Shown here piece after piece: positions 3,561 through 34,410 of a stretch of DNA of 64,000 nt. Position numbers and translations under genes: made by a program. Position 1 is the first letter of the stretch. Each line of letters opens with the position of its first letter. The stretch covers positions 2,164 to 66,163 of the forward strand of contig CAYXJO010000008.1 of NCBI GenBank assembly GCA_964465205.1. Direction: 5' to 3'. Origin of the DNA: an uncultured Gammaproteobacteria bacterium (GTDB lineage Bacteria > Patescibacteriota > Patescibacteriia > Magasanikbacterales > GWA2-37-8). The notes beneath the pieces were generated by a model. That model did no database searches, had not been told where the DNA came from, and saw nothing but the letters and a program-made list of their open reading frames with translations.

Positions 3561-3578
3561 ATTTAGAACAAACAACTG

Positions 3579-3650: not shown

Positions 3651-3866
3651 TTCTATAATTTCGTCGGCTTTGATATTCTACTATCACCAGCGAAGACATC
3701 CTATCGTTGTCTAACGCTGACAGAACGGCCGGCGCCAATTTTGAGCGTTGGTGGAAAAACAGTCTTGCCAACTGGGGAGCTCAAACCCGGTGAGCGATTC
3801 TGCCGGCCGACAAGACTGAGGAGAAATTTATTTATGTGCTCATAAATAATGTAAAAACAAGCATGC

Positions 3867-7678: not shown

Positions 7679-7684
7679 CGGCCC
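7611..7684 (-). tRNA. tRNA-Ala (anticodon GGC); CCA not encoded
   Basis: Hand-folded cloverleaf: acceptor GGGCCGT/ACGGTCC with the G3:U70 Ala identity pair. D-arm GCTC-AGCTGGCTA-GAGC. Anticodon arm CTTCC-ATGGCAT-GGAAG. T-arm ATCGG-TTCAAAT-CCGAT. Discriminator A. Confidence 0.8.
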
Positions 7685-10700: not shown

Positions 10701-13700
10701 AAGTTTATATAGCTATTACTATCTAACAAAGAAATGCTGCCGCTCACTGTCAGCGCCGCCACAGTATTAGTTGTCGCAATACCAACAAAACCAGTAGTAC
10801 CAGCTCCGTTAGACGATCCAACAAATAAGGTGGGCAAGTCACTGTTGAAACCAATCATTAAAGAATCCGCAATATTATTAACAAGCGGATTGTTTATGCC
10901 AGCTCCCACACCAATTACTGAACTTTGAACAGCTGCTGCCTGTACCGCACTGCCTATCACTATGGAGTCTCGAGCGGTCGCTTGTGCGTTAGCACCAAAA
11001 GCCAAACTACTCTCACCTGATGCTAAAACATTCTTACCAATTGCCTGCGAACTAGTGCCAATGTTCACATTATCCCATTCAGTACTACTAGCTATACCAG
11101 CACGAAACGAACCCTTGCTCGGTATCCACATCAGCCGAGTGCCAGCACCAGAAAAAGGAGTGTCGCCCGATGAACCATTAAATAACACTGAACCATTTTC
11201 AACCCCCAACCTGGCTATTACCGAAGTGGTACCCACTCCCAACTTCCACATTGCCGGGTCCCAATTAAGACCATTGTCACTAGTGATCGTAGAACTACCA
11301 TCCCACCAAGCTATTTGGTGGCTTGAACCACTTCCTTGCACACCTGTTACACCGGTAGTATTGGTAGAGATCGTGTACCAATTATCATCGCTACTGTGCT
11401 TAACTTGCACAAGACCGCCATAATCGCGCAAACCATAGCCATCCGTACCTGTTACGGAGTTAAAATTTAAGTAATTGTTACTGCCGTGCAACAACATGCC
11501 GCCTGATACCGACAGCTTAGTTGGCGGGTCTGAAATACCAATTCCAACATTCCCCGTCTGATCAATAGTCATTCTCACCACCCCAGATGAAGTGTCATTC
11601 TGTACGGTGGAGAAAGATATTTTGGAACCCTTGGCCGTATTGGTAAAACTTTGAGTAGCGCGAAAGTCAATCGACGAACCATCTAAAAACGTGCCCCAAG
11701 CACTAGTACCATAACCCACTGCAGTAATCGAACCCAGACGGTCATCATTCTGCACAGCCGAAGGCGCACTTTCGGTACCGCGCGCATAAGCCAAACCAAA
11801 AGCCGGATAACCACTACCGGGCGTTAATCCAGAATAATATGCCGCCGCAATAGCCGAGTCAGCTTGGTAGCCCCCGACAGCTACCAAGCTCAGACGGGTC
11901 AAAGGCCTACTGGTTCCTACGCCGACATATCCGGTGCTACTGCTAATAAACAAAGCTGAAGTAACAGTCCAACTAGTGCCGACACTATACAAAATATTAC
12001 CATCGGATCCGCTAGGCAAACTTCCACCACTGCTTATGTTTGCCCAATCTCCGCCACTATTTTTATATTGCATCGTACCGTTCAAGTCGCGAAATCCGTA
12101 GCCAGCAGTACCAGTAACATTATCTCCCGAGCCGAAATTCAAGTACGTAGTAGCACCAGGGCCAATACTTGATATCAAAGCATCACCATACACAGACAAT
12201 CTGGCTGGTGGATTACCAGTAACAGAGCTACCAATGCCGACATTACCGGTATGATCAATTACCATACGCGTATATGAACCATCAGAACCATTAGGTACCG
12301 TTTGAAACATGATTTTGGAACCGTTACTAGTAGAGGTAAATTGTTCCGTTGCCACAAATCTAATAACTGGACCCGCCCCAAAAGTCCAACCATCAACACC
12401 ATAACCTCCAGCTACTATTTGACCAAGATTATCTCCATTCTGAATTGCTGTCGGGCTAACAGGTGTCCCACGCGCTCGCATCAACGCGATTGTTGCGCCA
12501 GAATTATTGTCATTATAATACCACATGGATTGACCAGCACTAAAAGTATCAGTGCCGGATATGCTCAATTTAGTCAATGGATCCACAGTTCCAAAACCAA
12601 CATAACCCGTACTACTACTTATGTATATTGTCCGAGTAGCAACCCAATTGGCACCGACCGATGATATGATAGCCCCGTCTAAACCGGCAGGTACTGAACT
12701 AGTGCTAATATTCGTCCAAGCGCCATCGCTATTTTTGAATTGGATTGTGCCAAGATTATCACGGAAACCATAACCAGAGGTGCTAGTGGTGGAACCAAAA
12801 TTAATATAATTATATGATCCCTCCAATAATATGTTCCCATACACCGATAACTTCGATTCTGGCGACTCAGTACCAATACCAATATTACCACTATGATCAA
12901 TTACCATACGTGCCAATGTCGGGTTGGATAAACCATTTTGCGTAGTATACATAGCAATCCTAGAACCACGCCTACTACCGCCAGAATTAGAGAAATTTTC
13001 CGTAGCTTCAAAATTAATAAATGACGACACACTATAAGTACCACTACCTATATAACCCGACGCCAACACGCTACCAATCCAATCACCTTGTTGAACTGCT
13101 GTGGGACTGCTTTTGGTGCCACGTGAGTGCGCAAACATGACAGCCGGATACCCATCAGCGCCATGATAAAAAGAACTTATCATTGATTGTCCAAAAGAAC
13201 CAAGTGCTGATGATTCGCCTACCGCCGATATCCCGGTAGTGGGATTAGTCGTGCCTACACCTAAATACCCAGACACAGTGGTGGTGGCTAAGGTCGTATT
13301 TCTAGTTATAACAAGACTGCCGTTAGCATAAATCCCGGTCGAAGTTACTCGATTGAAGTTGAAGTTGCCTTGGGCATCAGAGATAGGAATATAAGTGGAC
13401 GTAGAAGCAGTCGAGGTGGCAGATACACCATCAAGATATTTGGAGTTAAAAGAATATGGCGCAGCAGTAATGCGTTTGCGCGGAGATAACACTTGCCCGT
13501 CGATACTAATCTCTAAATATAGATCGGAATTATTTTGAAATATAGTTGGCGACAATGAGTTGGTGCCGGTATCACCCAAATTTACACTAAATAATCCGCT
13601 AACTGGTGTAATATTTACAGTTGAAGTGGTTGGCAACGTACCGGAAGCAGTGTATAAAGCCGTTCCGCCAGACGCGTTATTGTATATAACGAATTTCATC

Positions 13701-13891
13701 GCCAAGGTGGTAGTAGCTGCTGTCCCATTCACTAACAATTTACCTTGATAAGTAATTATCGCTGGGGTGGCAGCCGCTTTTGTCGGCACGCCGTTACAAG
13801 TCGCAAAAATTGTAAACAAAACAATCCCGAATAACAAAAAGTTACGGAGTTTGCCAATTTTCCACCGTACGCTCTCAGTATATTTCCACAT
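7724..13891 (-). CDS. Giant secreted repeat protein (2055 aa) with about 20 degenerate repeats (..STGYVGVGTTNP.. / ..GNVGIGT..P..LSV..) and a Pro/Thr/Glu-rich C-terminal tail
   Basis: N-terminal signal/TM segment (LLFGIVLFTIFATCNG). Long Gly/Ser/Thr/Asn-rich beta-repeat body. A non-repeat module ...NGADYAEYFYTKDKDLTSGEVVCVD...IMGVVST... Terminator downstream. Confidence 0.85.
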   Translation of the reverse strand: MWKYTESVRWKIGKLRNFLLFGIVLFTIFATCNGVPTKAAATPAIITYQGKLLVNGTAATTTLAMKFVIYNNASGGTALYTASGTLPTTSTVNITPVSGLFSVNLGDTGTNSLSPTIFQNNSDLYLEISIDGQVLSPRKRITAAPYSFNSKYLDGVSATSTASTSTYIPISDAQGNFNFNRVTSTGIYANGSLVITRNTTLATTTVSGYLGVGTTNPTTGISAVGESSALGSFGQSMISSFYHGADGYPAVMFAHSRGTKSSPTAVQQGDWIGSVLASGYIGSGTYSVSSFINFEATENFSNSGGSRRGSRIAMYTTQNGLSNPTLARMVIDHSGNIGIGTESPESKLSVYGNILLEGSYNYINFGSTTSTSGYGFRDNLGTIQFKNSDGAWTNISTSSVPAGLDGAIISSVGANWVATRTIYISSSTGYVGFGTVDPLTKLSISGTDTFSAGQSMWYYNDNNSGATIALMRARGTPVSPTAIQNGDNLGQIVAGGYGVDGWTFGAGPVIRFVATEQFTSTSNGSKIMFQTVPNGSDGSYTRMVIDHTGNVGIGSSVTGNPPARLSVYGDALISSIGPGATTYLNFGSGDNVTGTAGYGFRDLNGTMQYKNSGGDWANISSGGSLPSGSDGNILYSVGTSWTVTSALFISSSTGYVGVGTSRPLTRLSLVAVGGYQADSAIAAAYYSGLTPGSGYPAFGLAYARGTESAPSAVQNDDRLGSITAVGYGTSAWGTFLDGSSIDFRATQSFTNTAKGSKISFSTVQNDTSSGVVRMTIDQTGNVGIGISDPPTKLSVSGGMLLHGSNNYLNFNSVTGTDGYGLRDYGGLVQVKHSSDDNWYTISTNTTGVTGVQGSGSSHQIAWWDGSSTITSDNGLNWDPAMWKLGVGTTSVIARLGVENGSVLFNGSSGDTPFSGAGTRLMWIPSKGSFRAGIASSTEWDNVNIGTSSQAIGKNVLASGESSLAFGANAQATARDSIVIGSAVQAAAVQSSVIGVGAGINNPLVNNIADSLMIGFNSDLPTLFVGSSNGAGTTGFVGIATTNTVAALTVSGSISLLDSNSYINFGAITSTGGYGLRDNGGVLEFKNSGGTWSAFGSATTTVAGNDGEVQYNSGGVLSATSSLAFRNGVFIADWNAVVTGTNRGVALIGNSNHIDDGPSSYVHHGTVLIGFANRTVTNGSDAPLVEGRVAIGSLNLVDGYNGAVAIGSGNASSGNTTMAMGSGMTVSGSGSVGIGLDTGSRFSVTQANTMAIMGGNVGIGTTTPISPLYVFSSSTGYTAGTSNATIISRVKTNASDSNTSIVSNFGAYLDNVAASPAAKAAFGAYGDQFDVTLGSLDQNVVIGPFRTTVGNGYDIIIAGGNGVGSGNGGITYIDGGNGVGGGNDGVVALIARTNYGKVGVGTSTPNARLSIIGASTSTLLSVYTSTTQPALFVSSNGYVGVGTSTPQDLLHLWGNNAGISLANTSGTPSHLRLVTDEDGDVYIQVGSAVTSGATTSLHFGPMRNNIGSYLTIAGNGNVGIGTTTPNYALTVSGSVNITGSYLTNGADYAEYFYTKDKDLTSGEVVCVDVTKNNAVKRCTRSADPDIMGVVSTKPSIIGNKSGDRENDPNYKIIGMLGQVAAKVSAENGPVRPGDSLTSASSTPGYLMRADAGDSTVGVALEGLDSGVGTVNVLISRRNKSMTVEQVEEKITRHIADMKIEDEVQILVSSAVGKYDFSSVSQLSALIDSKLQLFGDAFRVKLSDEMTMLFGNQLAVLNSSTEKLMAGFGEFSDSLGIVSTSLAFFQVEELSNNSAIWSAIDNVSTTLANFMAKDSVVSTSTELTIDQRSDYLMVKNNELNLNGAILANVTAVHARSDKWRITEDGLLVSVVQTSEGNKDVYAMQALSSELVFSGSGRLQAGETYIKFDTSTRDMIDSGQSLKVSVTLTSEEAKGIFVKAKDAFGFVVKELMGGQSDATFDWVVVARRGDGQVRDAGTAEPIDDAAIEETVVGNAGTSTPAFDQDSVPTSTVPEITAEPIMPTAEPDVPTAEETSIEPPAAVELPSQEAVVNSSAAQP

Positions 13892-13950
13892 AGATCAGAC
13901 TCCTTAATTGTACTGTGTTTATTATACCATTTTTAGGGCTTAAATAATAC

Positions 13951-13983
13951 AAAAAAGATGTGGATAAGTTCACATCTTTTTTG
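13951..13983 (-). terminator. Bidirectional rho-independent terminator (AAGATGTG-gataagtt-CACATCTT flanked by A/T runs)
   Basis: Read directly. The TGTGGATAA inside it is the hairpin loop/stem, not necessarily a DnaA box. Confidence 0.7.
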
Positions 13984-14001
13984 TTAACAAGAAGCTTTAA
14001 T

Positions 14002-17000
14002 TTACTGCTGTGTTGTTATGTCGACCGGCTTATCTGGCATAGTATTATTATCGCCTGTACTTACTGTTGAAGTTGGTGTGGGTTTATTGGGTGGCGATTG
14101 TAAACCGTCCGCCTTTTTCAGCGCTACATCCAATGCAATCGCCGCCGCATCTTGCCCGCGCAAGTCAATGTCTTCGGTTTTGGCCTGTTCATAACCCGGA
14201 CGTTCATAAGTAACATAAAACTGACTATCCGCTGCCAAAAATGTATAACGGCCATTCCTGTCGGTGATTTCGGTTGACACTAACTTGTTGAAATGTGAGT
14301 CAAACAGACGCGCCACCGCCCTATCCAACGGTTTTTTAGTGTGTTCATCATAAACAATACCCCATCCTTTGGCCTTTTGCATCACCGCCAATCTTCTAAA
14401 TAACAAGAACAAAACTATATGCACACCCAGCAATACCCACATATACCATTTTGGCGAAATATATAACGCCACAATAGTCACAAACAAACCTGTCCAAGAA
14501 ACCAAGATTTGCACATGACGCAACACTCTTTCCACATACAAACGTCGTGGTGTTTTGGACTCACCAGCCGGATCCATTGGAATGTTGGCGGTAATTGTAG
14601 TATCTTTGACCGTTACTTCGATCACTTCACCATGGTACAAATCCGTACGCCGACCATCGCTTTTGAAGTCCACCAACAACTTGGTAGGCGACACAAACCC
14701 GGCCTTAAAAGCTTCAATCTTATATTTACCCGGATCAGCAATGAAAATGTATCTACCATTTTTATCGGTTACACGTGAACGAATAATCTTACCGGATACC
14801 GCATCAACCAGACGCACTATCGCCAAATCAACCGGCATTTTACTTAAAGAGTTATACACCTGACCCCAATTTTTGCGCTTACGCCGGCCTATCAACAAAA
14901 TCGGCTGAAAAAACAATAGTTGTAGAAATGCCCACAAATTAGAGAAAGAAATAAGCGACACTGTGCCAACAGCCACCACACCTACGGCCGCCGGAGCCAC
15001 AATTTGAGTCGCTGCTTGTTCTACCACCGGATTATCTACCGTCTCTTTGATAACCTCCACTGCTCTTTCAATATTGGCGGGAATGGCCGCGGCGATAGTC
15101 GCCGGCTTCATTGTTAACCGAACTTGTCGATTAACTACGTTATTAGTAACAAGAAATCTTTGAGTCTTATGTGAATAGTATCTGTCTACATCTAACGCCA
15201 AATAATATTTACCATTTGGCACTACCCAACCAAAAACACCGTTGCGATCCGAGATTAACGGATTCAATTGTCCGTAATAATCGGCATTAAACAGTTCTCC
15301 TTTATCGTTGTACAGTTTTATATTGACCCCTTCCAAAGTAACTCCGCCGTCGCCGGTCACCACGCCTGTCGGCAAACTAGACAATTTAAAATTTACACTA
15401 TCAGTTTGACCCGATCCGTAATCTATCTCCAAAAAGGCGCTATTATCCCCATTTGGAAAAACAATATCGGTATAATATGTTTTTTGTTCATTGTCCAAAT
15501 TCAAGGCGTATTCGTTATTACCAAACCTCAACGCCACCCTAATAGGTGGCCCAGCCAACTTGACGCGTGGTACACCAACCGTAAACGCCGATCGCACCAA
15601 ACTACGTACGACACCCGCAGTATCCGGACGCAACTCAATATTGCGTGCTCCTCCCCAAAATAGTAGATCGCTAAGGTTCAAGTGTACAAAACCAGGTACG
15701 GTTATACCTCGACGACAATCAGTGGTGTTGAAAGAACAGTTGCTATTACACCGAACTACACCTTCATTCCAATCTATATTAAAATCACCGCAAGATTTCG
15801 TAATCGGCAGATTAGTTTCGCAATCTTCACCTATGTCCACAGTGCCATTGCCACAATTTTGTGGGTTGCCACAAGATAATGTGCAGTCACTGGCACAACT
15901 AGAAATACCACAACCGTTCAACGCACCATTGTCGCAATCCTCGGCTCCTTGTCTGGTGCCATCACCACACACCGGACAAACTTGAGTTTGGCACGTAGCA
16001 CTACAGGTGCTAGGGCAAATTCCATTGTTCGATCCGTGATCGCAAGTCTCTCCAGCACTAACATCAAGGTTACCATCGCCACAATTACCACCGCCTATAT
16101 GAGAACACCCTGAATAGTTATAAGTACAATTATTATTACAAGTAACTACACCGGAGTTCCAGTTGGCGTCTTGCTCGGCACAAGTACGAGTAATTGGTTT
16201 GTTTGGCTCACAATTTTCACCAGCGTCTGGCTCTCCATCACCACAATAGCCTTCATTTTCACAAACATTTCTCTTACAACTCATACTGCAGGCCTCTGGA
16301 CACACACCATTGGACCCGCCATTATCACATTCTTCACCCGCCACATCAATGAGTGAGTCGCCACAATAAGCTACTTTACAAAACACTTTGGCACCAGTGC
16401 TATAGTTGTCGGAGGTGTCTTTGGTAAAAATCTTATAATAATAATTTTTGTTTGCCGAAATACCACTATCAGTATAAGTCTGGCCGATACCGTCATAAAC
16501 CAAGACACCATCCAAATGCCCCGTAGGCTCAACATCTAGCTTTCTCACCACTTCTACTCCGGCAAAACAAGCCTCCGATAATTGATCGGGGTTGATCCAA
16601 GACAGTGCACAATTACGACTGGTGGTCACAACACCAAACTCCGAAACATTGGTAGGATTATTCAACATGTCCAACAATGTAGTGAAGGTATCATCGCTGG
16701 TACGCACTTGTTCATCACCCACTGCCGACACAACCTCGTAATGATAGGTAGTATTGCCGCACAAGTTGCTTACTAGTTGGCTATGGTTCGACAATAACGT
16801 AGAATTACCGATCATTGAACCATAGGCCGAAGTTAATCCATAATTAATCTGACTATCTGAATCTTTGTTGGTATTCCAAGTAACACTGGTAGTGGTCATG
16901 CCTGCACGAACCACTACATTATATATAGATAATGCTTGCCAAGGTGCCAACGTGCGGAACGTACCAACTACCGCCGAACCATTATTGGAGCTATCAGTAC

Positions 17001-17919
17001 AAGTGATAGTGAAACTATAACTAGTGTTCTCGGATAACCCTGATAAATTTACATTAAAATTACCGGCCGTAGGCTGATTCACTGTAGCGGCCGGACCACT
17101 ATAACTAAAACTACAATTTTGTAACCCACTCGCTCCATCATAAGCAGTCCACACCACATTCGCGGTAGTATAACTAGTCGAAGTACTGATAATAGTAATG
17201 GTCGGCCCTTCACAGTCGCCCTTGCAATTATGCGCCAGAATGCCGTCGGCAAAATAATTGTGGATATTAGACACTTCAAAGTTATACACAGTTGCCACAC
17301 TATCCACCCAACGTAAAGACCTCACCTTGACCATTTGCCCATGCTCATCTTGCAGACTGTCTCCGATATGTAGCTCGCCAGCCTCTTGCCACGCGCCATT
17401 TATATACAGTCGATGATTTGGTGTTACTTTCAAAAAATTATTAACAACTAAATATCCTGGGACATTATCGTGTTGGAACTTTTGCAAAACTTTTTCAACT
17501 TGCAGTTGTTTGGACTGCTCATCGTAACTATAAACTAAGTCACCCACAACAATATCGGCAATGCGCTTGCTAGAATTATTAGCTAGCAAAATCTTGGTAT
17601 CAGGCAAAAAACAAGGATTGCAATCCGGGTGTCCCACAGCACGACAAGTCGAGACCTGCCAACCACTACAATCTGCTTTACAACTGGCGGTACCACAGCC
17701 GTACAATGTAGAGCTAATACTAGTACAACTCGCGCTGCCACCATCACAAACTTCACCTTCATTTATAATATTATCTCCACACATCGCAGAGACAGACACA
17801 GTCATGTTGATATCAACACTACCGCTATCAGTGGCCGCCCAAGAGTCAATAAAATACCCCACCCCAATAATGGTAGTTATGACAAAAATCAAATTCATTA
17901 TAAACCTATGTTTTATCAT
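14002..17919 (-). CDS. Giant multi-domain surface protein (1305 aa): signal peptide, Hint/intein-like domain, FN3-like domain, Cys-rich CxxC..CDxG.NG.CP..C repeats, carboxypeptidase-regulatory-like (DxNGRYxF) domains and TM helices
   Basis: Motifs read from the translation. CGDGxxDxGExCD..NG.CP..CS..C repeats. DKNGRYIFIADPGKY and DRNGRYTFLAADSQFY modules. Two hydrophobic helices in the C-terminal third. Confidence 0.85.
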   Translation of the reverse strand: MIKHRFIMNLIFVITTIIGVGYFIDSWAATDSGSVDINMTVSVSAMCGDNIINEGEVCDGGSASCTSISSTLYGCGTASCKADCSGWQVSTCRAVGHPDCNPCFLPDTKILLANNSSKRIADIVVGDLVYSYDEQSKQLQVEKVLQKFQHDNVPGYLVVNNFLKVTPNHRLYINGAWQEAGELHIGDSLQDEHGQMVKVRSLRWVDSVATVYNFEVSNIHNYFADGILAHNCKGDCEGPTITIISTSTSYTTANVVWTAYDGASGLQNCSFSYSGPAATVNQPTAGNFNVNLSGLSENTSYSFTITCTDSSNNGSAVVGTFRTLAPWQALSIYNVVVRAGMTTTSVTWNTNKDSDSQINYGLTSAYGSMIGNSTLLSNHSQLVSNLCGNTTYHYEVVSAVGDEQVRTSDDTFTTLLDMLNNPTNVSEFGVVTTSRNCALSWINPDQLSEACFAGVEVVRKLDVEPTGHLDGVLVYDGIGQTYTDSGISANKNYYYKIFTKDTSDNYSTGAKVFCKVAYCGDSLIDVAGEECDNGGSNGVCPEACSMSCKRNVCENEGYCGDGEPDAGENCEPNKPITRTCAEQDANWNSGVVTCNNNCTYNYSGCSHIGGGNCGDGNLDVSAGETCDHGSNNGICPSTCSATCQTQVCPVCGDGTRQGAEDCDNGALNGCGISSCASDCTLSCGNPQNCGNGTVDIGEDCETNLPITKSCGDFNIDWNEGVVRCNSNCSFNTTDCRRGITVPGFVHLNLSDLLFWGGARNIELRPDTAGVVRSLVRSAFTVGVPRVKLAGPPIRVALRFGNNEYALNLDNEQKTYYTDIVFPNGDNSAFLEIDYGSGQTDSVNFKLSSLPTGVVTGDGGVTLEGVNIKLYNDKGELFNADYYGQLNPLISDRNGVFGWVVPNGKYYLALDVDRYYSHKTQRFLVTNNVVNRQVRLTMKPATIAAAIPANIERAVEVIKETVDNPVVEQAATQIVAPAAVGVVAVGTVSLISFSNLWAFLQLLFFQPILLIGRRKRKNWGQVYNSLSKMPVDLAIVRLVDAVSGKIIRSRVTDKNGRYIFIADPGKYKIEAFKAGFVSPTKLLVDFKSDGRRTDLYHGEVIEVTVKDTTITANIPMDPAGESKTPRRLYVERVLRHVQILVSWTGLFVTIVALYISPKWYMWVLLGVHIVLFLLFRRLAVMQKAKGWGIVYDEHTKKPLDRAVARLFDSHFNKLVSTEITDRNGRYTFLAADSQFYVTYERPGYEQAKTEDIDLRGQDAAAIALDVALKKADGLQSPPNKPTPTSTVSTGDNNTMPDKPVDITTQQ
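17227..17613 (-). other. Hint (Hedgehog/intein) / bacterial intein-like domain, residues about 103-231 of the giant protein
   Basis: Block A CFLPDTKIL. Block B VTPNHRLY (TxxH). Terminal VYNFEVSNIHNYFADGILAHN followed by Cys (+1). No endonuclease insert (about 129 aa). Confidence 0.7.
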
Positions 17920-18814
17920 ATCGTGCCTGAAGCTTTTTCATTTTAATCTTGCGAACAAATTTAAACGTCAGCATAAATACCACAATGACTACTACTGATA
18001 GTCCAACCAAACTCCACACTGGCCAATACCACACATAATCGACAGCTGTTATACTCTGTTTAGTCAAACCATACGCTATTCTAGACTCAACTTGGTAGAT
18101 ACCGGGCCACAAAACCGATCCTGCCACATCTGTTTCAAAGTTGGTAATTTTTTGGGCCCCTGCCAATACTTTATTATTGGAAAAAATCTGCTTGACGACC
18201 AAAGCGTGTCCGCGCCAACTATTTATTACCAACTCTCCACTAACTGGCACCTCGACATTACCTTTGTTCTCCAACACCAAATCAAAACGCCATGATTTTT
18301 GACTAGTCCAACTTTGTTCGCTTTCAAATTTTTTAACAAGTAAAGACTCGTATGCTGAACCAGAGACTTGTATTGTAATCAAACTCAACAAACGAGGCGA
18401 AAAACCCACATTGCTTTTACCTGTGTTTCCTGACTCAACCCCCAGACCCAAATAGTGACTCCCAGGGATTGCGTCGCGTGGAATATCAATCTCAAAAACA
18501 ACCTCACTTTTACCGCCGGGTCCCACATTTATTTCTGTGTCAACCGACTTGACCCATTGCTCTGCGGACTCCAAATTTTTACCAAATACCGGCTGTCCTT
18601 TTTCGCCCTGACGAACACCAAATACGACTGGCACAAATTTCATTCCTATGGCTTCATCGTTATCAACCTGTATCTTGGTCACTTGTGTACTACCGGGATC
18701 GGCTGTAATCAAAAAACGTACCGGACTAATGGTAAATGCCAGCGTGGGTGGCGCCCAAAAAAATGACAATGCCAATAAGAATAGTAATTTACGCCACATA
18801 AATTGCCAGCACAA
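17906..18814 (-). CDS. Secreted protein with N-terminal signal peptide and C-terminal TM anchor (302 aa)
   Basis: N-terminal LLFLLALSFFWAPPTLA. C-terminal WSLVGLSVVVIVVFMLTF followed by a basic tail. Confidence 0.7.
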   Translation of the reverse strand: MCWQFMWRKLLFLLALSFFWAPPTLAFTISPVRFLITADPGSTQVTKIQVDNDEAIGMKFVPVVFGVRQGEKGQPVFGKNLESAEQWVKSVDTEINVGPGGKSEVVFEIDIPRDAIPGSHYLGLGVESGNTGKSNVGFSPRLLSLITIQVSGSAYESLLVKKFESEQSWTSQKSWRFDLVLENKGNVEVPVSGELVINSWRGHALVVKQIFSNNKVLAGAQKITNFETDVAGSVLWPGIYQVESRIAYGLTKQSITAVDYVWYWPVWSLVGLSVVVIVVFMLTFKFVRKIKMKKLQARYDKT

Positions 18815-18818
18815 AAAA

Positions 18819-19454
18819 TTAAAAATTAGCGGAAGCGGTCAAAACTACCGTTTGACTATAACTACCCGCCACCGTAGTCGAACTAATAGCTGCTTTAAAT
18901 TCCAATACCGTAGCACTGCCCACAATCGGCGCGACAGAAGCGGCAATAAGCAGACTGCTGGTCACCGCCACATCACCGCTAGTAAGTTGATTCTCTGCTC
19001 CGCTGCCGGCCACACCAAACGCTTCAGTGCCGGCTGTCACTGTACCCCCAACCACATCCTGCAGACTACCACCCGACCAAATCGCACTTCCAACTGTTAA
19101 CGAATAACCTGTCCCCGCGTCAGTAGAGACCGTTGCGGTGGTAGAAGCACTACTTACCGTAGATGTACTCAAGGTGCCCAAATTCAAAGATGAGTCAGAG
19201 ATACTCAAACTGATATACCCCCTATCCATAGCCTGATAACCGCCACGAATTTCATAAGTGCCGTCATTCATAATTCCCACCGGCGACTCTCCCAAACTGG
19301 AATCCAAACTATACTCGCCACCAATGCTAAACACACCACCGGAATCAATCGTGTCGGCATAGATGTAGTAATCTGTGGAAGACATGGCGGCAAATAAATT
19401 CGTCGGCAAAATTAGCGCGCCTAACAATAGAATTGTAACAATGAATAATCTCAT
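18819..19454 (-). CDS. Secreted Ser/Thr/Gly-rich protein (about 211 aa from MRLFIV start)
   Basis: Signal-peptide-like MRLFIVTILLLGALILPTNLFAA. The listed ORF start at 19508 overlaps the upstream gene. I prefer the ATG at 19454. Confidence 0.6.
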   Translation of the reverse strand: MRLFIVTILLLGALILPTNLFAAMSSTDYYIYADTIDSGGVFSIGGEYSLDSSLGESPVGIMNDGTYEIRGGYQAMDRGYISLSISDSSLNLGTLSTSTVSSASTTATVSTDAGTGYSLTVGSAIWSGGSLQDVVGGTVTAGTEAFGVAGSGAENQLTSGDVAVTSSLLIAASVAPIVGSATVLEFKAAISSTTVAGSYSQTVVLTASANF

Positions 19455-19482
19455 TTGGCGAATATTAAAAACGGCGGCAAAA

Positions 19483-21762
19483 TTATTGTTGCACTGGTGC
19501 GCCCACAAGTGATCGAATCTTATTTATAATATCTTTATTATCGGGATTCAAATCTTTCACTTTATAATAATATTCTAGAGCTTTAGCTTTGTCACCGCGT
19601 GATTCATACAACAAACCTAAGCTATATAAAGCATTAGAATAATTCGGCTGAATACGCACAGCCTCCAACCAAAATTTTTCGGCGTCAGCACGATCAGTAC
19701 CCTTATTGCGATTGTAAATCAAGCGGCCATAATTGAACAAAGCGTCAGGATTTTGTAGGGCCACCGGCATAATTGTCTTATACGACTCTACTGCTTTATC
19801 CATTTCTTGTTTTTGTTCATAAGCATTGGCCAAACCAACATATGAACCAACATAATCTTGTTTCAAACGAATCGCTTCCTGATAACTCTTGATTGCCTCA
19901 TCCCACTTACCGGCCAAACTGTAATTATTGCCAAGTCTCCACCACAATACTGGGTTGGTAGGTTCTAAATCCTTGGCTTGGGTAAGTGATTTGATCGCCC
20001 AATCACGCGCCTGTTCTACAATCAATGCCGCGTTCTCATACATGGTAGACAGGTTTTCCCAAATACCAACCGAAGCCGGAGAAATATCAGTGGCAGCTTT
20101 GGCTGCGTTTACTGCTTTGGCCACCAACACACTTACATCTTGCAAATTTGGATTTTGACCCTGACTCGCGTTAGATGCTTGCAACAAATAAACTTGCGCA
20201 AGCGCGGCATTATAAACATCAGAGCTACTGCGTTGTGCCAATGCTTCAGATATTTTTTGTTCCGCTACTTTGGCATCAGTCGCCTGCAACGCTTTGGCAT
20301 ATACAGTTTCAGCGTAGTAGAGCTTGGCACCCCAAACACCCACCATTACCACCGCAGCAATCACTACGATCAAAGTAAAAGAAAAAGACAAACTATATTG
20401 AGGAGTATCATCTACTTCCCAAGACAAATATTTTATAACTCGATCACTAAGGAAAGATAGTCCAACTACAGTTAGACTTAATAAGGATACCCAGAGCCAC
20501 CACAACACTGGCCCAAAAAATAACACCGCCATACTACCGGTCAAAACAATCCAAGCCACCGCTACCAACAGGATATCCAGCCCCACCTCTTCTCCACCAA
20601 ATGGACTAATAGTAATTTTCCCGGCTTTGGCTTTCTTGTACCAAGCTTGGAAAATATGCCCCAACAAAAGTACGAACAAAAATATAAAAGTTAAAAAGAC
20701 CACAATGCCCCCCTCGGCTAAAAGCGCTATTAGGGTGCTAAATGGTTGGTTGAAACGTAAAGACCATGCTGTAGAATCATAATTGAAATCAGCCGGACGA
20801 AATTTGGAAAACTCATAACCAAACGTTCCCAAGCCACTACCAATCACGAAACTTTTTACACCCGAAAACGCGGAATTGTAAGCGATTGTCCATGATGGCT
20901 TGAGCCCAAGTGCCACTTCGGCCGGTACAGCGGATTGTAAGGACTTTGGCGTACCAAACGCAATAAATACCACAGTAAGGATCAAACCCGCAAACAGTGC
21001 TGATACACACCCCATACGAACTTCGGACACAAAACTAACACCCACTAATAATAAAAGTGCCAAGCCAATCAATAACACCCACCACAAGACGTTGAAACTT
21101 AAAAGTACTAATGATGTAAACGCCAAAATAGTAACAAAAAAGTACAACAACGAACGCCCGGTGGGAATTTCTTTGCGCAACAAGTGACCGGCCGACAACA
21201 ACAGAACCACAATTAACCACAAACCAAACTGACTATTCAGTTTATCTATAAGATTCCATGCACCCGGAGCCAAAAAGCCGATGAGATCCCACTTGAAAAC
21301 CATCTTAAAAATAAAAGTAAGTGCGGTTAGTCCACCTACTGCAATAATCGCGTCGATGATTCCACGCCAACGCTTTACGGTAGTCAAATGATTTGTGTTG
21401 AGAAAAAAGTACAATACCAAGAAGAACAAAAACATGAAGTTGAACACAAAATATTCATTACGGCCAAGAAAGCTGTCGTTGGCATTAACAGAAAAAATAC
21501 CCGACACCAATGTCACTAACAAGAATACTAGAAGCGGTAAATCAAAAATTGAACGGCGGTATTCAAATTGTTTTGACAATACTACGCGCGCCGCATATAA
21601 CAAAAATGCTACCGATACCAAACCAATGAATACATACTGTTTTGGTATGATAAACGAATTTAATAAATTGCGATCCACAAATAACGACATTGCTATTCCC
21701 GCGACTAAAAGCACCACATAGGTAAGCGTATCCAACACCTTATAGGCTGATTGGTTTGACAT
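19483..21762 (-). CDS. Polytopic membrane protein with O-antigen-ligase-like (Wzy_C-type) core and C-terminal TPR repeats
   Basis: >=10 hydrophobic helices in the N-terminal 450 aa. The C-terminal region has TPR-like AxxYxxAL periodicity (WDEAIKSYQEAIRLKQDYVGSYVGLANAYE...). Confidence 0.7.
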   Translation of the reverse strand: MSNQSAYKVLDTLTYVVLLVAGIAMSLFVDRNLLNSFIIPKQYVFIGLVSVAFLLYAARVVLSKQFEYRRSIFDLPLLVFLLVTLVSGIFSVNANDSFLGRNEYFVFNFMFLFFLVLYFFLNTNHLTTVKRWRGIIDAIIAVGGLTALTFIFKMVFKWDLIGFLAPGAWNLIDKLNSQFGLWLIVVLLLSAGHLLRKEIPTGRSLLYFFVTILAFTSLVLLSFNVLWWVLLIGLALLLLVGVSFVSEVRMGCVSALFAGLILTVVFIAFGTPKSLQSAVPAEVALGLKPSWTIAYNSAFSGVKSFVIGSGLGTFGYEFSKFRPADFNYDSTAWSLRFNQPFSTLIALLAEGGIVVFLTFIFLFVLLLGHIFQAWYKKAKAGKITISPFGGEEVGLDILLVAVAWIVLTGSMAVLFFGPVLWWLWVSLLSLTVVGLSFLSDRVIKYLSWEVDDTPQYSLSFSFTLIVVIAAVVMVGVWGAKLYYAETVYAKALQATDAKVAEQKISEALAQRSSSDVYNAALAQVYLLQASNASQGQNPNLQDVSVLVAKAVNAAKAATDISPASVGIWENLSTMYENAALIVEQARDWAIKSLTQAKDLEPTNPVLWWRLGNNYSLAGKWDEAIKSYQEAIRLKQDYVGSYVGLANAYEQKQEMDKAVESYKTIMPVALQNPDALFNYGRLIYNRNKGTDRADAEKFWLEAVRIQPNYSNALYSLGLLYESRGDKAKALEYYYKVKDLNPDNKDIINKIRSLVGAPVQQ

Positions 21763-21832
21763 ATTTAAATTAAAAAAATAAGTAATTGTTGCGACTTTAT
21801 TTTATTATAGCATATTTAATAGCAAGGAACAA

Positions 21833-21841
21833 TGTGGATAA
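21833..21841. promoter_or_regulatory. DnaA box (TGTGGATAA = TTATCCACA, perfect)
   Basis: Exact match to the 9-mer consensus. Confidence 0.5.
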
Positions 21842-21965
21842 GCCCCAAATCCCAACACTTAAATTCCTAAATTTATTCTAGCTTTCAACTACAAAAAACG
21901 GTTATTAAATAGTTGTGTTTTACAAACACACAACCCGCTTCAAACTGTTTATGAACAAAATCATT

Positions 21966-21981
21966 TGTTTCACGTGAAACA
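21966..21981. promoter_or_regulatory. parS centromere-like site, perfect 16-bp palindrome TGTTTCACGTGAAACA
   Basis: Exact match to the canonical ParB/Spo0J parS consensus tGTTTCACGTGAAACa. Confidence 0.8.
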
Positions 21982-21999
21982 TAATGCCCAAAAATATAA

Positions 22000-22010
22000 C
22001 ACGTGAAACA
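22000..22010. promoter_or_regulatory. parS half-site (CACGTGAAACA)
   Basis: Right half perfect, left half diverged. Confidence 0.4.
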
Positions 22011-22144
22011 TAAGAACTGGGTAGTTAAATAACGACCCGAAACGATTTCTCCATAACTATACAATTTTAGAACACACTAATACAAACACAGCTAAGAGCC
22101 ACAAACTTATCAACCACAACTCCAAATGAAGCTGGCTTGACTTT

Positions 22145-22160
22145 TGTTTCCCGTGAAACA
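22145..22160. promoter_or_regulatory. parS-like site TGTTTCCCGTGAAACA (1 mismatch)
   Basis: 15/16 match to the parS consensus. Confidence 0.65.
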
Positions 22161-22420
22161 CAACACAAACAAAATTAAGTGTCGACGGGGACTATAGTTT
22201 CATAAAACAAACTTTTATAACTTAGAACACAACCAACCTAAACCAACGTCGTATCGCATGATGTATATAATAGATTAACCGTAAAATCACTTTTGCCACC
22301 CTTGACATACTAAATAAACAAACGATCACACATAGCATATCGTTTACGGCCTAGCCTACACAGTAACCAAAAAAACAATTTATTATGTATTTTCTACATA
22401 CACACATATATTTTTGACAA

Positions 22421-22436
22421 TGTTTCACAGGAAACA
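22421..22436. promoter_or_regulatory. parS-like site TGTTTCACAGGAAACA (2 central mismatches)
   Basis: 14/16 match. Confidence 0.45.
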
Positions 22437-22475
22437 TCTCGTATAACTAGCAAAATATCATGTATTATGCTCGTA

Positions 22476-22538
22476 ATTTGTATACACTAGTCTATACAAA
22501 CTCACAAATCCACTGATTTATGCACAGTTTTATCCACA
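22476..22538. promoter_or_regulatory. 26-bp palindromic element aTTTGTATAcactagtcTATACAAAC followed by DnaA boxes TTATGCACA (22518-22526) and TTATCCACA (22530-22538)
   Basis: 9-bp inverted arms with an 8-bp spacer. The same element recurs twice near 42 kb with the spacer inverted. Confidence 0.6.
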
Positions 22539-22694
22539 GGGCAATATAATAAAATTATCACCATAATAACTGTTGTTTGGGGTAATGACCGTCGCACAGC
22601 TGTTTCAAACGAATAAGAGCCAACGATGCCTTTTGAGAGTATAATCCTGGTCAACAATATCAATCTATGGCTAAAATTTAGAGTTTTTAAGGAT

Positions 22695-22715
22695 TAAAAA
22701 AGGGCCTTTCGGCCC
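22695..22715 (-). terminator. Rho-independent terminator (GGGCC-gaaa-GGCCC + T-run on minus strand)
   Basis: Read directly, downstream of the 141-aa minus-strand ORF. Confidence 0.65.
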
Positions 22716-22778
22716 AAAAGTGTTTGCTAGAAACAAGTCAAAGCAACAAATTACAAAAAGTGTCTTAAAGCAATAGTC

Positions 22779-23204
22779 CTAAAGAATATCTCCATACTCA
22801 TAGGCCAATCTGGCAAGCCGGTTCTGCTCAGCTCGATAATACCCCTTTCTTTTTGGTATTTTCCGACGGTTGAGGTGTTCCTTTGGATTGGGTGGAAAAC
22901 ACGTAACCAGAGCATACACGGCTTCAGATTTGGTGCTTGGCTCCAACACAAACACCATTCCTATGTCCTTATTGAATAAGTAGACGCTTTCCGGATGTAG
23001 TTGTAGCCGAATCTTCCAGTTGTTGAGTTTCGTAACCGAAATCTGCGTAGACTCGTGCAACTGCTCGAGAATCAACTCTCGTATCTCGACTGCATTGCGG
23101 GGCACACTGATACCACATTCGTTCTGACAGCGAATGCGATATTGCAAAATCGCATGTCGCGTGAATATCATGTTGGACAACATGGTGTCCGACTGCGTCA
23201 TCAT
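22779..23204 (-). CDS. Hypothetical protein (141 aa), basic C-terminus
   Basis: Strong SD AAGGAGGTG 7 nt upstream of ATGATG, unusual for this genome. Located immediately 3' of tRNA-Ala(CGC). Confidence 0.65.
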   Translation of the reverse strand: MMTQSDTMLSNMIFTRHAILQYRIRCQNECGISVPRNAVEIRELILEQLHESTQISVTKLNNWKIRLQLHPESVYLFNKDIGMVFVLEPSTKSEAVYALVTCFPPNPKEHLNRRKIPKRKGYYRAEQNRLARLAYEYGDIL

Positions 23205-23302
23205 GACACCACCTCCTTATTGTTAGTGTTATAGCACTTGAAAGATCGTATTATAAAATCTATCACCACTAGTGAATCATGTCAAGATAGACTAAACACA
23301 TG

Positions 23303-23375
23303 TGGACCAGAGGGGAGTCGAACCCCTCACCTCAGCAATGCGAATGCTGCGCTCTACCAGATGAGCTACTGGCCC
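23303..23375 (-). tRNA. tRNA-Ala (anticodon CGC); CCA not encoded
   Basis: Acceptor GGGCCAG/CTGGTCC with G3:U70. D-arm GCTC-ATCTGGTA-GAGC. Anticodon arm CAGCA-TTCGCAT-TGCTG. T-arm AGGGG-TTCGACT-CCCCT. Discriminator A. Confidence 0.8.
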
Positions 23376-25177: not shown

Positions 25178-27196
25178 TTGTTTCTCTCACTCAATTTGAG
25201 TATGACCACTACCATTGTGGCACTTCTAGCGCTTCTACCGGCGGTCTTGGCTATCGCCTACGGTGTCGCGCTTATCGTTTGGATCAATCGTCAGCCTACT
25301 GGCGACGAACGTATGCAGTCTATCGCGCGCGCCATACAAGAAGGCGCGAAGGCTTACCTAGCTCGTCAATACAAAACAGTAGCTTGGGTAGCCGGTATAA
25401 TTTTTATTATTATCGGATTGGCAGTAGATTGGTTCACTGCACTAGGGTTCGTGGTGGGCGCGATTTTGTCCGCCCTTGCCGGTATTATTGGCATGAACAT
25501 TTCCGTACGCGCCAACTTGCGCACTGCTGAAGCTGCCAAGCAAGGTATAGTCAAAGCGCTTACTGTTGCCGTACGCGGTGGTTCGATTACCGGTTTGTTT
25601 GTGGCCGGTCTTGGTCTTTTGGGTGTATCTGGTTTTTATTTAATTTTCAATGACATTTCCGCTTTGGTTGGCTTGGCTTTCGGCGGATCTCTCATTTCAA
25701 TTTTTGCTCGTATTGGTGGTGGTATATTTACCAAGGCCGCCGATGTGGGTGCCGACCTCGTCGGTAAGGTAGAAAAAGGTATCCCCGAAGACGATCCACG
25801 CAACCCGGCGGTGATCGCCGATAATGTCGGTGATAATGTTGGTGATTGTGCCGGTATGGCCGCAGATTTATTCGAGACCTATGCGGTGACTGCTATCGCC
25901 GCAATGGTGTTGGGTGATTTGCTGTTCCCGGGCAATGATCGTGTGGTGGTGTATCCTTTGATACTCGGTGGTGTCTCTATCATCGCTTCTATCATCGGTA
26001 CCTTTGCTATTCGTTTGGGCAAAAGTCAAAACGTCATGAATGCTTTGTACAAAGGTTTGGCCGCTGCTGGCGTCCTCGCTCTCATCGCATTTTATTTTGT
26101 CACCAATTGGCTCATGAAAAATATCGACGGTGTATTAACTTGGAAAATTTTCCTCACCGCCGTTATTGGTTTGGCCATGACCGCGCTTATGGTCTGGCTC
26201 ACCGAATATTACACTGCCACCAAATATAATCCGGTAAAAAATCTGGCCAAAGCTTCTGAGACTGGACACGGCACCAATGTGATTGCTGGTTTGGCTTTGT
26301 CTATGCGCTCTACCGCATTGCCGGTGCTCGCTATTGTGGCAGCTATTTTGGGTGCTTATTGGCTCGCTGGTATCTATGGTGTGGCTATTGCCGCCATGAG
26401 CATGCTTTCGCTCACCGGTATTATCGTAACCATTGATGCATACGGTCCTATTACCGACAACGCTGGTGGTATCGCCGAAATGGCGGAACTACCAGAAAGC
26501 GTACGCGCCATTACTGATCCGCTCGATGCTGTAGGCAACACTACCAAAGCTGTAACCAAAGGTTACGCGATCGCTTCTGCCGGTTTGGCTTCGCTCGTAT
26601 TATTCGCTGATTATACTCACAAGCTACCTTCTACCGTACAATTTCTAATCAACGATCCGAAAGTCTTGGCTGGATTGTTTATCGGTGGTCTGTTGCCATA
26701 TTTATTCGGATCCATGCTTATGGAATCTGTAGGTAAAGTAGCTGGCAAAGTAGTAGAAGAAGTACGTCGTCAGTTCCGTGAAATTCCAGGAATCATGGAA
26801 CACACCAACAAACCGGACTATGGTAAAGCCGTAGACATCGTCACCAAAGGCGCTATTGGTCAAATGATTGTGCCGGCTTTGATTCCGGTGGCGGCGCCGA
26901 TTTTGGTTGGGTTCATCTTGGGCGTAGAAGCTCTAGGCGGTGTGCTACTTGGCACGATTATCACCGGCCTCTTCGTCGCGATTTCCATGACCACTGGTGG
27001 TGGCGCTTGGGACAACGCGAAAAAACATATTGAAATGGGAAACTACGGTGGTAAAGGATCCTTTGCTCATCAAGCCGCTGTCACTGGCGACACCGTGGGC
27101 GATCCATACAAAGATACTGCTGGTCCAGCTGTAAACCCAATGATCAAAGTAGCCAACATTGTGGCGCTACTCATCGTGGGACTCTTGATTAAATAA
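25178..27196 (+). CDS. hppA: Membrane-bound H+/Na+-translocating pyrophosphatase
   Basis: [19 protein letters not shown] and [21 protein letters not shown] signature motifs, about 15 TM helices. Start may be the MTTTIVALL Met at about 25202. Confidence 0.9.
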
Positions 27197-31593: not shown

Positions 31594-33000
31594 ATGCTTA
31601 TGACTAACCACGAAATTTGGCAAGCAGTGTTAGCCGAACTAGAACTCTCTATCTCCAAGGCGAGTTTTGTTACTTGGTTCAAAGACACTGGTATTGCTTC
31701 TTTTCAGGATGGGGTGGTGTTGGTTTGCGTCCCAAATCAATTCTATCTGTCTTGGATCCAACAAAAATATCACCAAATGATACTGAAATCTCTAGAACGT
31801 ATTAGTGGTAAGCCAATTAAAAAGCTGGAGTATAAAGTAGAAAACATAAAAAATATCTCTACCCAAGCCCCGGTGTTGTCACCTGTCACCACCGAACCAC
31901 AGTTGGAATCACAAACCGAATCATTACCGGTGTCAGCTTACAATCAGTCTGTCCAAAGAAATTGTGGCGGCTTCACTCTCAACTCAAAATATACTTTTGG
32001 TAGTTTTGTGGTGGGCAAAGGATCAGAGTTGGCTTTTGCCGCCGCCCAAGCAGTCGTCAACAAGCCGGGAGAGGCCTACAACCCACTATTTATTTATGGT
32101 GGTGTGGGTTTGGGAAAAACCCACCTACTCCAAGCTATTGGTAATGAACTACTCAACCGCAACCCCAATACAACCATAATGTATGTCAGTGCCGAAAGGT
32201 TCTCGAATGATTTTATCACCTCAATCAAAGACGGTACGGCCAAAGAATTTCAAAACCGCTATCGTAACATTGACCTACTATTAATAGACGACATTCAATT
32301 TATCGCGGGCAAAGACCGCTCCCAAGAATCATTTTTCCACACCTTCAATGAGCTACACCAAGCCAACAAACAAGTAATTCTTACTTCCGACCGCCCACCC
32401 AAAGCCATTCCGGCATTGGAAGATCGTCTCAAATCTCGTTTTGAGTGGGGCATGATTGTGGATGTGGCACCACCAGATTACGAAACCAGAGTGGCTATTT
32501 TACAAAAAAAATGCGCAGAAAAAGGTTTCAACTTGGAACAAAAATCCATTGAAGCCATAGCTAGCGCGGTACAGACAAACATCCGTGAGCTCGAAGGTTC
32601 ACTCAACAAGATAATTGCCTACCATCAGTTGAAAAACATTGGTCCGACCCCAGAAACAATTAAATCTCTATTATCCAGCGCCGAATCTGCCGGCATGAAA
32701 CACTCGGTTACACCCAAACAACTAATTGACGCGGTTAGTGATTTCTACAGCATTGCCGCCGACGACATCTTGGGCAAAAGCCGTGAGAAAAAATTGTCTG
32801 CTCCACGCCAAATTATTATGTACCTCATGCGTGAAGATCTAAAAATGTCTTATCCGGCCATTGGCGAAGAGTTGGGCGGCCGTGACCACACCACCGCTAT
32901 GCACGCTCACACCAAGGTACGTAGTGATATCGAAAACGATCCTAAGCTCCGTCAAGAAATCGATAATATCAAACAAAAATTATATATTAACAATGTATAG
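31594..33000 (+). CDS. dnaA: Chromosomal replication initiator DnaA
   Basis: AAA+ Walker A GGVGLGKTHL, Walker B LLLIDDIQF, C-terminal HTH ...AIGEELGGRDHTTAMHA. Confidence 0.95.
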   Translation: MLMTNHEIWQAVLAELELSISKASFVTWFKDTGIASFQDGVVLVCVPNQFYLSWIQQKYHQMILKSLERISGKPIKKLEYKVENIKNISTQAPVLSPVTTEPQLESQTESLPVSAYNQSVQRNCGGFTLNSKYTFGSFVVGKGSELAFAAAQAVVNKPGEAYNPLFIYGGVGLGKTHLLQAIGNELLNRNPNTTIMYVSAERFSNDFITSIKDGTAKEFQNRYRNIDLLLIDDIQFIAGKDRSQESFFHTFNELHQANKQVILTSDRPPKAIPALEDRLKSRFEWGMIVDVAPPDYETRVAILQKKCAEKGFNLEQKSIEAIASAVQTNIRELEGSLNKIIAYHQLKNIGPTPETIKSLLSSAESAGMKHSVTPKQLIDAVSDFYSIAADDILGKSREKKLSAPRQIIMYLMREDLKMSYPAIGEELGGRDHTTAMHAHTKVRSDIENDPKLRQEIDNIKQKLYINNV

Positions 33001-33288: not shown

Positions 33289-34410
33289 ATGAAATTCTCA
33301 TGCACAAAGGAGAAATTGGCTAAAGCCCTCTCCCTTACAATTGGGGTGGCAAACAAAAGTGTGAACTTACCAATTTTGGGTAATGTACTAATCCGAGCCG
33401 AAATTCAAAAAGTTGAAATTGTCGCCAACAATTTAGAGATGGCTATCATTGCCAATCTTCCGGCCAAAACCGAAACCGCCGGATCGTTTACTGTCCCGGC
33501 CCGCACCCTCGCGGACTTTGTAGCCCTCCTACCAGATGAAAAAATTGAGATAGAGTTAAAAGAAAACGAACTTGCTGTCACCTGTGGTAAATCATCGACC
33601 AAAATTAAAGGGTCACCAGCCGAAGAATTTCCAATGGTGCCAAAACTAGAAGAAGGTAAAGGTTTTACTATCAAAACCGACGATTTTAAAAGAGGTTTGT
33701 CACAAGTTTTGCCGGCAGTAGCCCGCAACGACATCCGCCCCGAATTATCCGGCATTTGTTTTAATTTTAACAGCGAGTATTTTGCTGGTTTGGTCATGGC
33801 CGCCACCGACAGCTATCGCTTAGCAGAAAAACGTATCAAATTGTCCCAGGGCGCAGAACAAGTGCGCATCATAGTGCCCGGGCGTACCGCGCAAGAAATA
33901 GGGCATGTTTTGGCCCAAGCAGATGGTGACCAGAGTGAGGGTGTGCGTGTGTTAATCGGTGAAAACCAAGTTGCGGTAAATTATGACAGCGTTCAACTTG
34001 TTTCTCGTTTGGTGGACGGTCAATATCCGGACTATACCCAAATTATTCCCAAAGACTTCAAAACCACCGCAGTGTTCCCAACTAACAACATGATGAAAGA
34101 AATAAAAGCCGCTAGTTTGTTTACGACCAGCGGTGTGAACGCGGTATCGTTGGATTTGAATGTTTCACAGGGCACCTTGGGGGTGTCATCCACCTCCACC
34201 CAAACCGGTGAGTACACATCAGAGATTAACGCCGAGCTTACTGGCGAAGAAAATTCTATTCTACTCAACCACCGCTATGTGATTGATGGTCTCAACAATA
34301 TCACTACCGACATTACCACCCTCAAAGTAATCAATGGCGATAGTCCGTGTTTGTTTGCTCCACAAGGAGATGAAACATATTTGTATATTGTCATGCCCAT
34401 CAGACAATAA
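33289..34410 (+). CDS. dnaN: DNA polymerase III beta sliding clamp
   Basis: Three-domain clamp, typical N-terminus MKFSCTKEKLAKAL. Follows dnaA. Confidence 0.9.
   Translation: MKFSCTKEKLAKALSLTIGVANKSVNLPILGNVLIRAEIQKVEIVANNLEMAIIANLPAKTETAGSFTVPARTLADFVALLPDEKIEIELKENELAVTCGKSSTKIKGSPAEEFPMVPKLEEGKGFTIKTDDFKRGLSQVLPAVARNDIRPELSGICFNFNSEYFAGLVMAATDSYRLAEKRIKLSQGAEQVRIIVPGRTAQEIGHVLAQADGDQSEGVRVLIGENQVAVNYDSVQLVSRLVDGQYPDYTQIIPKDFKTTAVFPTNNMMKEIKAASLFTTSGVNAVSLDLNVSQGTLGVSSTSTQTGEYTSEINAELTGEENSILLNHRYVIDGLNNITTDITTLKVINGDSPCLFAPQGDETYLYIVMPIRQ

Follow-up and report, generated by a model that had tools for sequence, protein, structure and literature searches.

A conserved parS module near the replication origin is the probable chromosomal centromere of a Magasanikbacteria-like bacterium

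We propose that the 1016-bp gap at 21763-22778 of the window (the whole stretch of 64,000 nucleotides of DNA analysed here) is the chromosomal centromere, a parS array, of a Magasanikbacteria-like CPR bacterium, and judging from its sequence we consider this highly likely. The array lies on one replichore, within a conserved cis-module of fixed geometry. A parS cluster alone is an ordinary feature and the composite module is the noteworthy part: a 24-bp palindrome, its fixed geometry with a DnaA-box trio and parS, and its further occurrence in a sister module of the opposite replichore appear to be undescribed. The initial annotation of this DNA had proposed a ParB-loading or centromere locus, a proposal that the sequence, statistics, position and conservation of the sites support, with ParB itself as a reader that we infer; it had made no mention of the gap's DnaA-box array or of the palindrome at a fixed distance from parS.

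Four sites in the gap, none of which is assigned a strand, match the 16-bp inverted repeat tGTTtCAcGTGAAAca, used here as the parS reference, at 13 to 16 of 16 positions. Only one of the four is perfect: site 1, TGTTTCACGTGAAACA (21966-21981; a 16-bp palindrome, 16/16, no mismatches), which lies 204 bp upstream of the start of a TPR gene. The site TGTTTCCCGTGAAACA at 22145-22160 has one mismatch (15/16), and TGTTTCACAGGAAACA at 22421-22436 has two, both central (14/16), with the 24-bp palindrome 40 bp away. All three had been pointed out in the initial annotation, with the same numbers of mismatches, as matches to the parS consensus of ParB/Spo0J, and our mismatch scan recovered each of them, including the 16/16 copy. 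The half-site reported at 22000-22010 proved to be the right half and core of a degenerate site with three mismatches, TATAACACGTGAAACA (21995-22010, 13/16), in which the right arm and the CACGTG core are intact and for which, given its sequence, ParB binding may be weaker or absent.

Beyond these four, a scan of the 64-kb window found no parS with three or fewer mismatches. All four lie within 471 bp, against 0.59 expected by chance in the window (the mean of 100 dinucleotide-preserving shuffles, of which the maximum was 3 and none reached 4), and five of the eight exact GTGAAACA half-sites of the window also fall in the gap. A check for parS-like palindromes scattered at many unrelated positions found none such, the sites being confined to one locus. 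The gap itself, with a GC content of 29-40% and a top strand that is strongly C- and A-rich, contains no ORF longer than 59 aa, in keeping with its earlier description as a gene-free stretch of 1 kb. Rfam gave no hit for either strand at E values up to 1, which rules out a known RNA here. A hidden or decayed gene was rejected too, there being neither ORFs nor remnants of the TrmB-like gene that is seen there in some relatives.

The position of the array is that of a chromosomal parS locus. dnaA (31594-33000, plus strand), with rpmH directly upstream, and dnaN (33289-34410, plus strand) are both flanked by intergenic regions with DnaA boxes, and those around dnaA also include an AT-rich tract. 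The GC-skew switch, which we located by regressing per-gene GC skew on gene orientation and side of the putative origin, is placed best at 34-34.5 kb once corrected for orientation, with a fit that is still good over 33-36 kb. The parS cluster therefore lies close to the origin by either measure, as the initial annotation had also placed it: it is approximately 9-10 kb to the left of dnaA (9.2-9.6 kb from the dnaA start, with dnaA-dnaN 9-11 kb off) and approximately 12 kb from the skew switch.

Judging from its genes, the genome from which the window comes is Magasanikbacteria-like (Patescibacteria/CPR). The H+-PPase encoded at 25178-27196 is 70-81% identical to proteins from metagenome-assembled genomes (MAGs) of Candidatus Magasanikbacteria and other Patescibacteria, and in those MAGs the M23 peptidase, PPase, trigger factor, AP endonuclease, yidD, rnpA, dnaA, dnaN and PBP1 are syntenic. 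Several TPA_asm MAG records titled 'uncultured Gammaproteobacteria bacterium' (among L001-L004, L011-L013, L015 and L017) are typical of Magasanikbacteria (CPR) in the order of their genes and the identities of their proteins, and these records are probably mislabelled. In 22-kb loci around the PPase-dnaA blocks of near relatives, no parS with three or fewer mismatches was found within 10 kb, as the conserved block does not include the parS gap; from their absence there, the parS sites are locus-specific rather than scattered.

Next to the last parS site is the second component of the module. An AT-rich spacer (22437-22476; 38-60 bp in relatives) leads to a 24-bp near-palindrome, TTTGTATACACTAGTCTATACAAA (22477-22500), neither feature being assigned a strand. 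The lineage consensus of the palindrome is TTTGTATACACTAGTGTATACAAA, that is two TGTATACA units around CTAG, or in general form TTTGTATA[C/G]ACTAGT[G/C]TATACAAA; more distant relatives (L011-L013, L015, L050) keep the arms as TTTGTATA-N8-TATACAAA. Exact conservation of the palindrome extends to at least 120 metagenome contigs (loci L082-L201; also L014). Directly after it comes an array of DnaA boxes in the same orientation (22505-22538, plus strand), consisting of a weak AAATCCACT, TTATGCACA at 22518-22526 and a perfect TTATCCACA at 22530-22538. Among the matches listed, the palindrome always adjoins DnaA boxes at fixed offsets of 1 nt or approximately 30 nt, and the phasing of the boxes relative to the palindrome is kept in 27 distinct module copies. 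A further perfect DnaA box on the minus strand (21833-21841), 71 bp upstream of the start codon of the TPR protein, occupies a position that is not obviously conserved in relatives.

Among the matches listed, the contigs that carry the palindrome split into two recurrent contexts. Context A, the counterpart of the gap at 42 kb of the window, has two or three palindromes with DnaA boxes upstream of dksA-lspA-comM. Context B, the counterpart of the parS gap, has the order TPR gene, two or three parS sites, AT-rich spacer, one palindrome, phased DnaA-box trio (tATGCACt, TTATaCcCA and TTATCCACA at +54/55 from the palindrome) and tRNA-Ala. At least two parS sites with two or fewer mismatches, many of them perfect, stand beside the palindrome in 13 related loci among the matches listed, and two of these, L185 and L096, have three perfect sites each. 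A TPR orthologue is present on 7 of the 13 fragments; those bordering the parS cluster in L082, L098, L105, L110, L185, L196 and L198 show 35-55% identity, and the TPR-side parS lies approximately 205-240 bp before the start of the orthologue. The 813 kb made up of the window and the motif loci among the matches listed contain 43 parS-like sites, of which 41 are no more than 1.5 kb away from a palindrome. Taken with the shuffles and with the PPase-dnaA loci, the parS sites are thus beyond chance expectation and restricted to specific loci.

The way in which these sites are conserved speaks for their function. A logo from 37 distinct sites reproduces the parS consensus, with the outer arms TGTT/AACA essentially invariant and the central four positions variable, and even the imperfect copies of the window recur, TGTTTCCCGTGAAACA four times among the distinct sites of relatives and TGTTTCACAGGAAACA in L110 and L098. 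By blastn, the palindrome and boxes (22475-22539) were the only segment of the gap that aligned to any relative, whereas the parS 16-mers persist at variable spacing in gap DNA that is otherwise non-alignable. Sites that survive as conserved islands while the non-coding DNA around them diverges, here across 13 loci, are therefore the signature of selection on protein-binding sites.

The genes on either side place the module in a stable chromosomal setting. On the left, the minus-strand gene at 19483-21762, which encodes a 759-aa polytopic membrane protein with C-terminal TPR repeats, heads an operon that includes two genes for secreted proteins (18819-19508 and 17906-18814). On the right, tRNA-Ala(cgc) (23302-23375, minus strand) is the conserved neighbour of the module, adjoining the DnaA boxes in all 12 relatives examined, and rmuC lies beyond the tRNAs in most relatives. 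Between the DnaA boxes and tRNA-Ala the window has a 141-aa ORF (22779-23204, minus strand) with its own intrinsic terminator (22702-22715); it has no Pfam domain, and a search of 5.8 billion proteins yielded no homologue. The only relative with a syntenic ORF, 32% identical, is L100, which like the window carries it between the DnaA boxes and tRNA-Ala; the ORF is an insertion relative to most relatives, in which tRNA-Ala directly follows the boxes, and lies outside the conserved module.

Across the origin, the sister module (41910-42171, no strand assigned) occupies a 1-kb gap upstream of dksA-lspA-comM, approximately 8 kb rightward of the skew switch. The palindrome is present there in two exact copies (41910-41933 and 42045-42068), inverted with respect to that at 22477 and interleaved with six DnaA boxes, three perfect and three with one mismatch, which form a cluster at 41974-42171. 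The module upstream of dksA is conserved in approximately 20 relatives among the matches listed, and in the window dnaA contains the point midway between the two modules. Between the DnaA-box and palindrome cluster and dksA there is also a conserved promoter-to-terminator unit on the minus strand (approximately 41421-41809), with a promoter of the TTGACA-17-TATAcT type, a -35 core TTGAC that is invariant in 20 of 20 sequences, and a body of approximately 390 nt with conserved blocks followed by an intrinsic terminator. Neither an ORF of at least 40 aa nor an Rfam match was found in it, and on these features we consider it a candidate ncRNA; the alignment of 20 sequences upstream of dksA was too gappy for RNA covariation. 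The DnaA-box cluster is followed immediately on its right by a short RHH-like ORF (42240-42440) and by the gene for a PemK/MazF toxin (42737-43105).

Gene order in the origin region varies between the 22.5-42 kb portion of the window and L009, L011-L015 and L112. The dksA-lspA-comM genes adjoin the M23 peptidase in some relatives and lie beyond PBP1 in the window and others, a difference that, as far as gene order tells, is consistent with the block from M23 to PBP1 having been inverted. As inverted repeats, the two palindrome modules could mediate such inversions.

That the parS gap is instead a replication origin, or half of a bipartite one, with parS embedded in an oriC that is unwound through the DnaA boxes, the palindrome and the AT-rich spacer, is a reading we consider unlikely. 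It would account for three phased DnaA boxes of the same orientation by a conserved element and an AT-rich stretch of 40-60 bp, for the divergence of transcription from the gap in relatives (rmuC and the tRNAs to one side of it and the TPR operon to the opposite side) and for the similar second module at 41.9-42.2 kb. However, an oriC should coincide with the GC-skew switch, and in the window the switch lies at 33-36 kb, not at 22 kb. The relatives agree: in pooled loci, oriented alike and corrected for gene orientation, the replication skew is negative on both sides of the parS module (-0.052 and -0.059) and positive on both sides of the dksA module (+0.051 and +0.049). Since the sign is the same on both sides of each, neither module is the skew switch point, and it is for this reason that we treat the gap as an origin only as a minority reading. 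Moreover, the regions flanking dnaA offer DnaA boxes and an AT-rich tract of their own, and on inspection the palindrome holds no DnaA-trio-like repeat. The parS gap has the DnaA-box trio by the palindrome and a 40-bp AT-rich spacer; neither a DnaA-trio nor a DUE repeat could be recognised. The DnaA-box cluster at 41974-42171 was likewise ruled out as an origin by skew. What the skew does show is that the two modules lie on opposite replichores and flank the origin, in relatives as in the window.

The centromere reading requires a ParB, and none is encoded nearby. Pfam scans found no ParA or ParB domain in window ORFs of 100 aa or more, and tblastn and phmmer searches with Bacillus subtilis Spo0J and Soj (the Spo0J query being confirmed against PDB 6SDK with 407 bits) found nothing in the window and 201 related loci, which together comprise 2.17 Mb, the related loci reaching up to approximately 10 kb on each side of the module. 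In this lineage, therefore, parAB is not linked to parS or to dnaA, and the cognate ParB would be encoded elsewhere in the genome. We infer a canonical ParB as the reader because the pan-bacterial parS consensus is strictly conserved.

The same searches could be taken to mean that the parS palindromes are operators of a protein other than ParB, such as a regulator of the TPR/surface-protein operon, for which a TrmB-type wHTH protein would be the candidate, and that there is no centromere here. The roughly constant 205-240 bp between the proximal site and the start of the TPR gene would suit an operator, as would the TrmB-family genes in or beside the module in eight relatives, one of which, in L045, is flanked by parS. 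Nevertheless, we think this very improbable: convergence would hardly produce a 16/16 copy of the pan-bacterial ParB site whose consensus is also kept by relatives, the number and spacing of the sites vary among relatives as those of a promoter operator would not, and the window keeps its sites although it has no TrmB-like gene and its gap no pseudogene remnant of one. The TrmB-family wHTH genes (PF01978) lie 0.06-1 kb from the palindrome among the matches listed, and their positions are L157 3763-4599, L169 3191-4033, L121 4286-5029, L119 809-1612, L082 2753-3412, L095 8826-9485, L156 408-1163, L125 1-288 and L045 2862-3596. Within such genes, parS-like 16-mers encode the V-S-R-E/Q-T stretch of the HTH. 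It is possible that the TrmB-family protein reads the palindrome.

Finally, it is extremely improbable that the cluster belongs to an integrated plasmid or prophage as its partition site, or is a decaying relic, instead of being the chromosome's own centromere; a serine recombinase does adjoin tRNA-Ala(ggc) at 6089-7684 and the orphan ORF at 22779-23204 is inserted beside the gap, yet the same chromosomal context of TPR operon, tRNA-Ala and rmuC is found in many relatives, there is no adjacent parAB, the gap has no similarity to any of 72,556 plasmids, the palindrome is absent from the viral contigs of IMG/VR and the GC content of the flanks is like that of the rest of the window. A plasmid or viral origin was rejected on the same lack of similarity and the same conserved synteny. 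Plasmid and prophage centromeres are tight repeat arrays next to parAB, with several sites in a few hundred bp of non-coding DNA. The array described here resembles them in packing several sites into short non-coding DNA and differs from them in its chromosomal consensus, in the lack of parAB alongside and of plasmid or viral similarity, and in its conserved chromosomal synteny; neither of the marks of a mobile partition cassette, an adjacent parA-parB pair and similarity to mobile elements, was found.

Among chromosomal centromeres, that of B. subtilis has parS sites dispersed over a large origin-proximal domain, mostly inside genes, with one site within spo0J, next to soj. The array of the window shares with B. 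subtilis-type parS (TGTTNCACGTGAAACA) the 16-bp consensus, the origin-proximal position and the tolerance of imperfect copies. It differs in that four sites are gathered in 470 bp of non-coding DNA and in that no parAB lies within the 64-kb window or, in relatives, within the at most approximately 10 kb covered on each side of the module, whereas on many chromosomes parS and parAB are linked.

A closer parallel is Corynebacterium glutamicum, in which ten parS sites, nine of them intergenic, lie within 35 kb on one side of oriC and load ParB and SMC (PMC7083940). There, as here, the array is clustered, intergenic, one-sided and origin-proximal and has a B. subtilis-like consensus (PMC7083940). 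Since tight intergenic parS clusters are known from this organism, the initial annotation overstated the case in calling a tight non-coding cluster unusual (PMC7083940). In contrast to C. glutamicum, the cluster of the window is approximately 75 times more compact and has fewer sites, lies approximately 10 kb from the origin rather than 73 kb, and is joined, with constant spacing, to DnaA boxes and a palindrome specific to the lineage. Initiator sites at a centromere a few kb from the origin, giving crosstalk between initiation and partition, have precedents as well (PMC6399470). In Caulobacter crescentus, DnaA binds DnaA boxes at the centromere (Mera et al. 2014; PMC6399470), and on chromosome II of Vibrio cholerae RctB binds parS2/rctA (PMC6399470). 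The present locus differs from both in that initiator binding is predicted from the sequence, the DnaA boxes are a phased trio beside an additional 24-bp palindrome and a sister module without parS exists on the other replichore.

On the basis of established ParB biology, we propose the following model for the centromere. Dimers of a canonical ParB/Spo0J, encoded elsewhere, would recognise the perfect and the two near-perfect sites, and the site with three mismatches would probably be bound more weakly. ParB would then close as a CTP-dependent clamp and slide onto flanking DNA, forming an origin-proximal partition complex that could load SMC and, if ParA is present, would drive segregation of the origin. 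Several sites within 470 bp would raise the rate of ParB loading at this single locus. From the geometry of the module, DnaA and a palindrome-binding factor would act beside the ParB loading site, and the status of the initiator would thereby be linked to centromere function, as at the Caulobacter centromere.

More tentatively, the origin may be flanked by a lineage-specific control system with the parS array as one of its arms, and in this system a palindrome-binding factor would couple DnaA occupancy to centromere loading and segregation in cells that are ultra-small; we put this forward as a possibility, and a modest one. Such a system would consist of two modules with the same palindrome and phased DnaA boxes, on opposite replichores approximately 10 kb either side of dnaA, one fused to ParB loading sites and the other to the unit of approximately 390 nt upstream of dksA. 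The candidate for the palindrome-binding factor would be the TrmB-type wHTH protein, which in some relatives is encoded inside the module. In a more extreme version, the lineage may be without a canonical ParB and the palindrome-binding factor may read parS.

Chromosome segregation is essentially unstudied in CPR/Patescibacteria, and our literature search found no ParB/parS study in Patescibacteria (CPR). This locus indicates that CPR bacteria use the canonical parS and have conserved it, and it offers a precise handle for finding the ParB of the lineage. The fixed arrangement that ties parS to three DnaA boxes and to a strictly conserved palindrome, the latter shared by two kinds of origin-flanking module, provides a testable case of crosstalk between replication and segregation outside a few model organisms.

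Three further regions of the window deserve mention. Downstream of the TPR-p229-p302 surface-protein operon that adjoins the parS gap, minus-strand genes at 7724-17919 encode two giant proteins, one of 2055 aa and one of 1305 aa, the latter with Hint/pretoxin-HINT and CarboxypepD_reg domains. The large serine recombinase has Resolvase, Recombinase and zinc-ribbon domains, its gene overlaps tRNA-Ala(ggc) at the 3' end and the ORFs upstream of it (2574-5621) have no Pfam domains; this region may be an integrated element. At 46.9-51 kb and at 52740-53858, the GC content climbs from approximately 0.43 to 0.53-0.55. Here lie three paralogous genes resembling class II aminoacyl-tRNA synthetases of the Asp/Asn/Lys type (48086-49495, 49507-50895 and 52740-53858), flanked by methyltransferases, and the region may be an acquired island.
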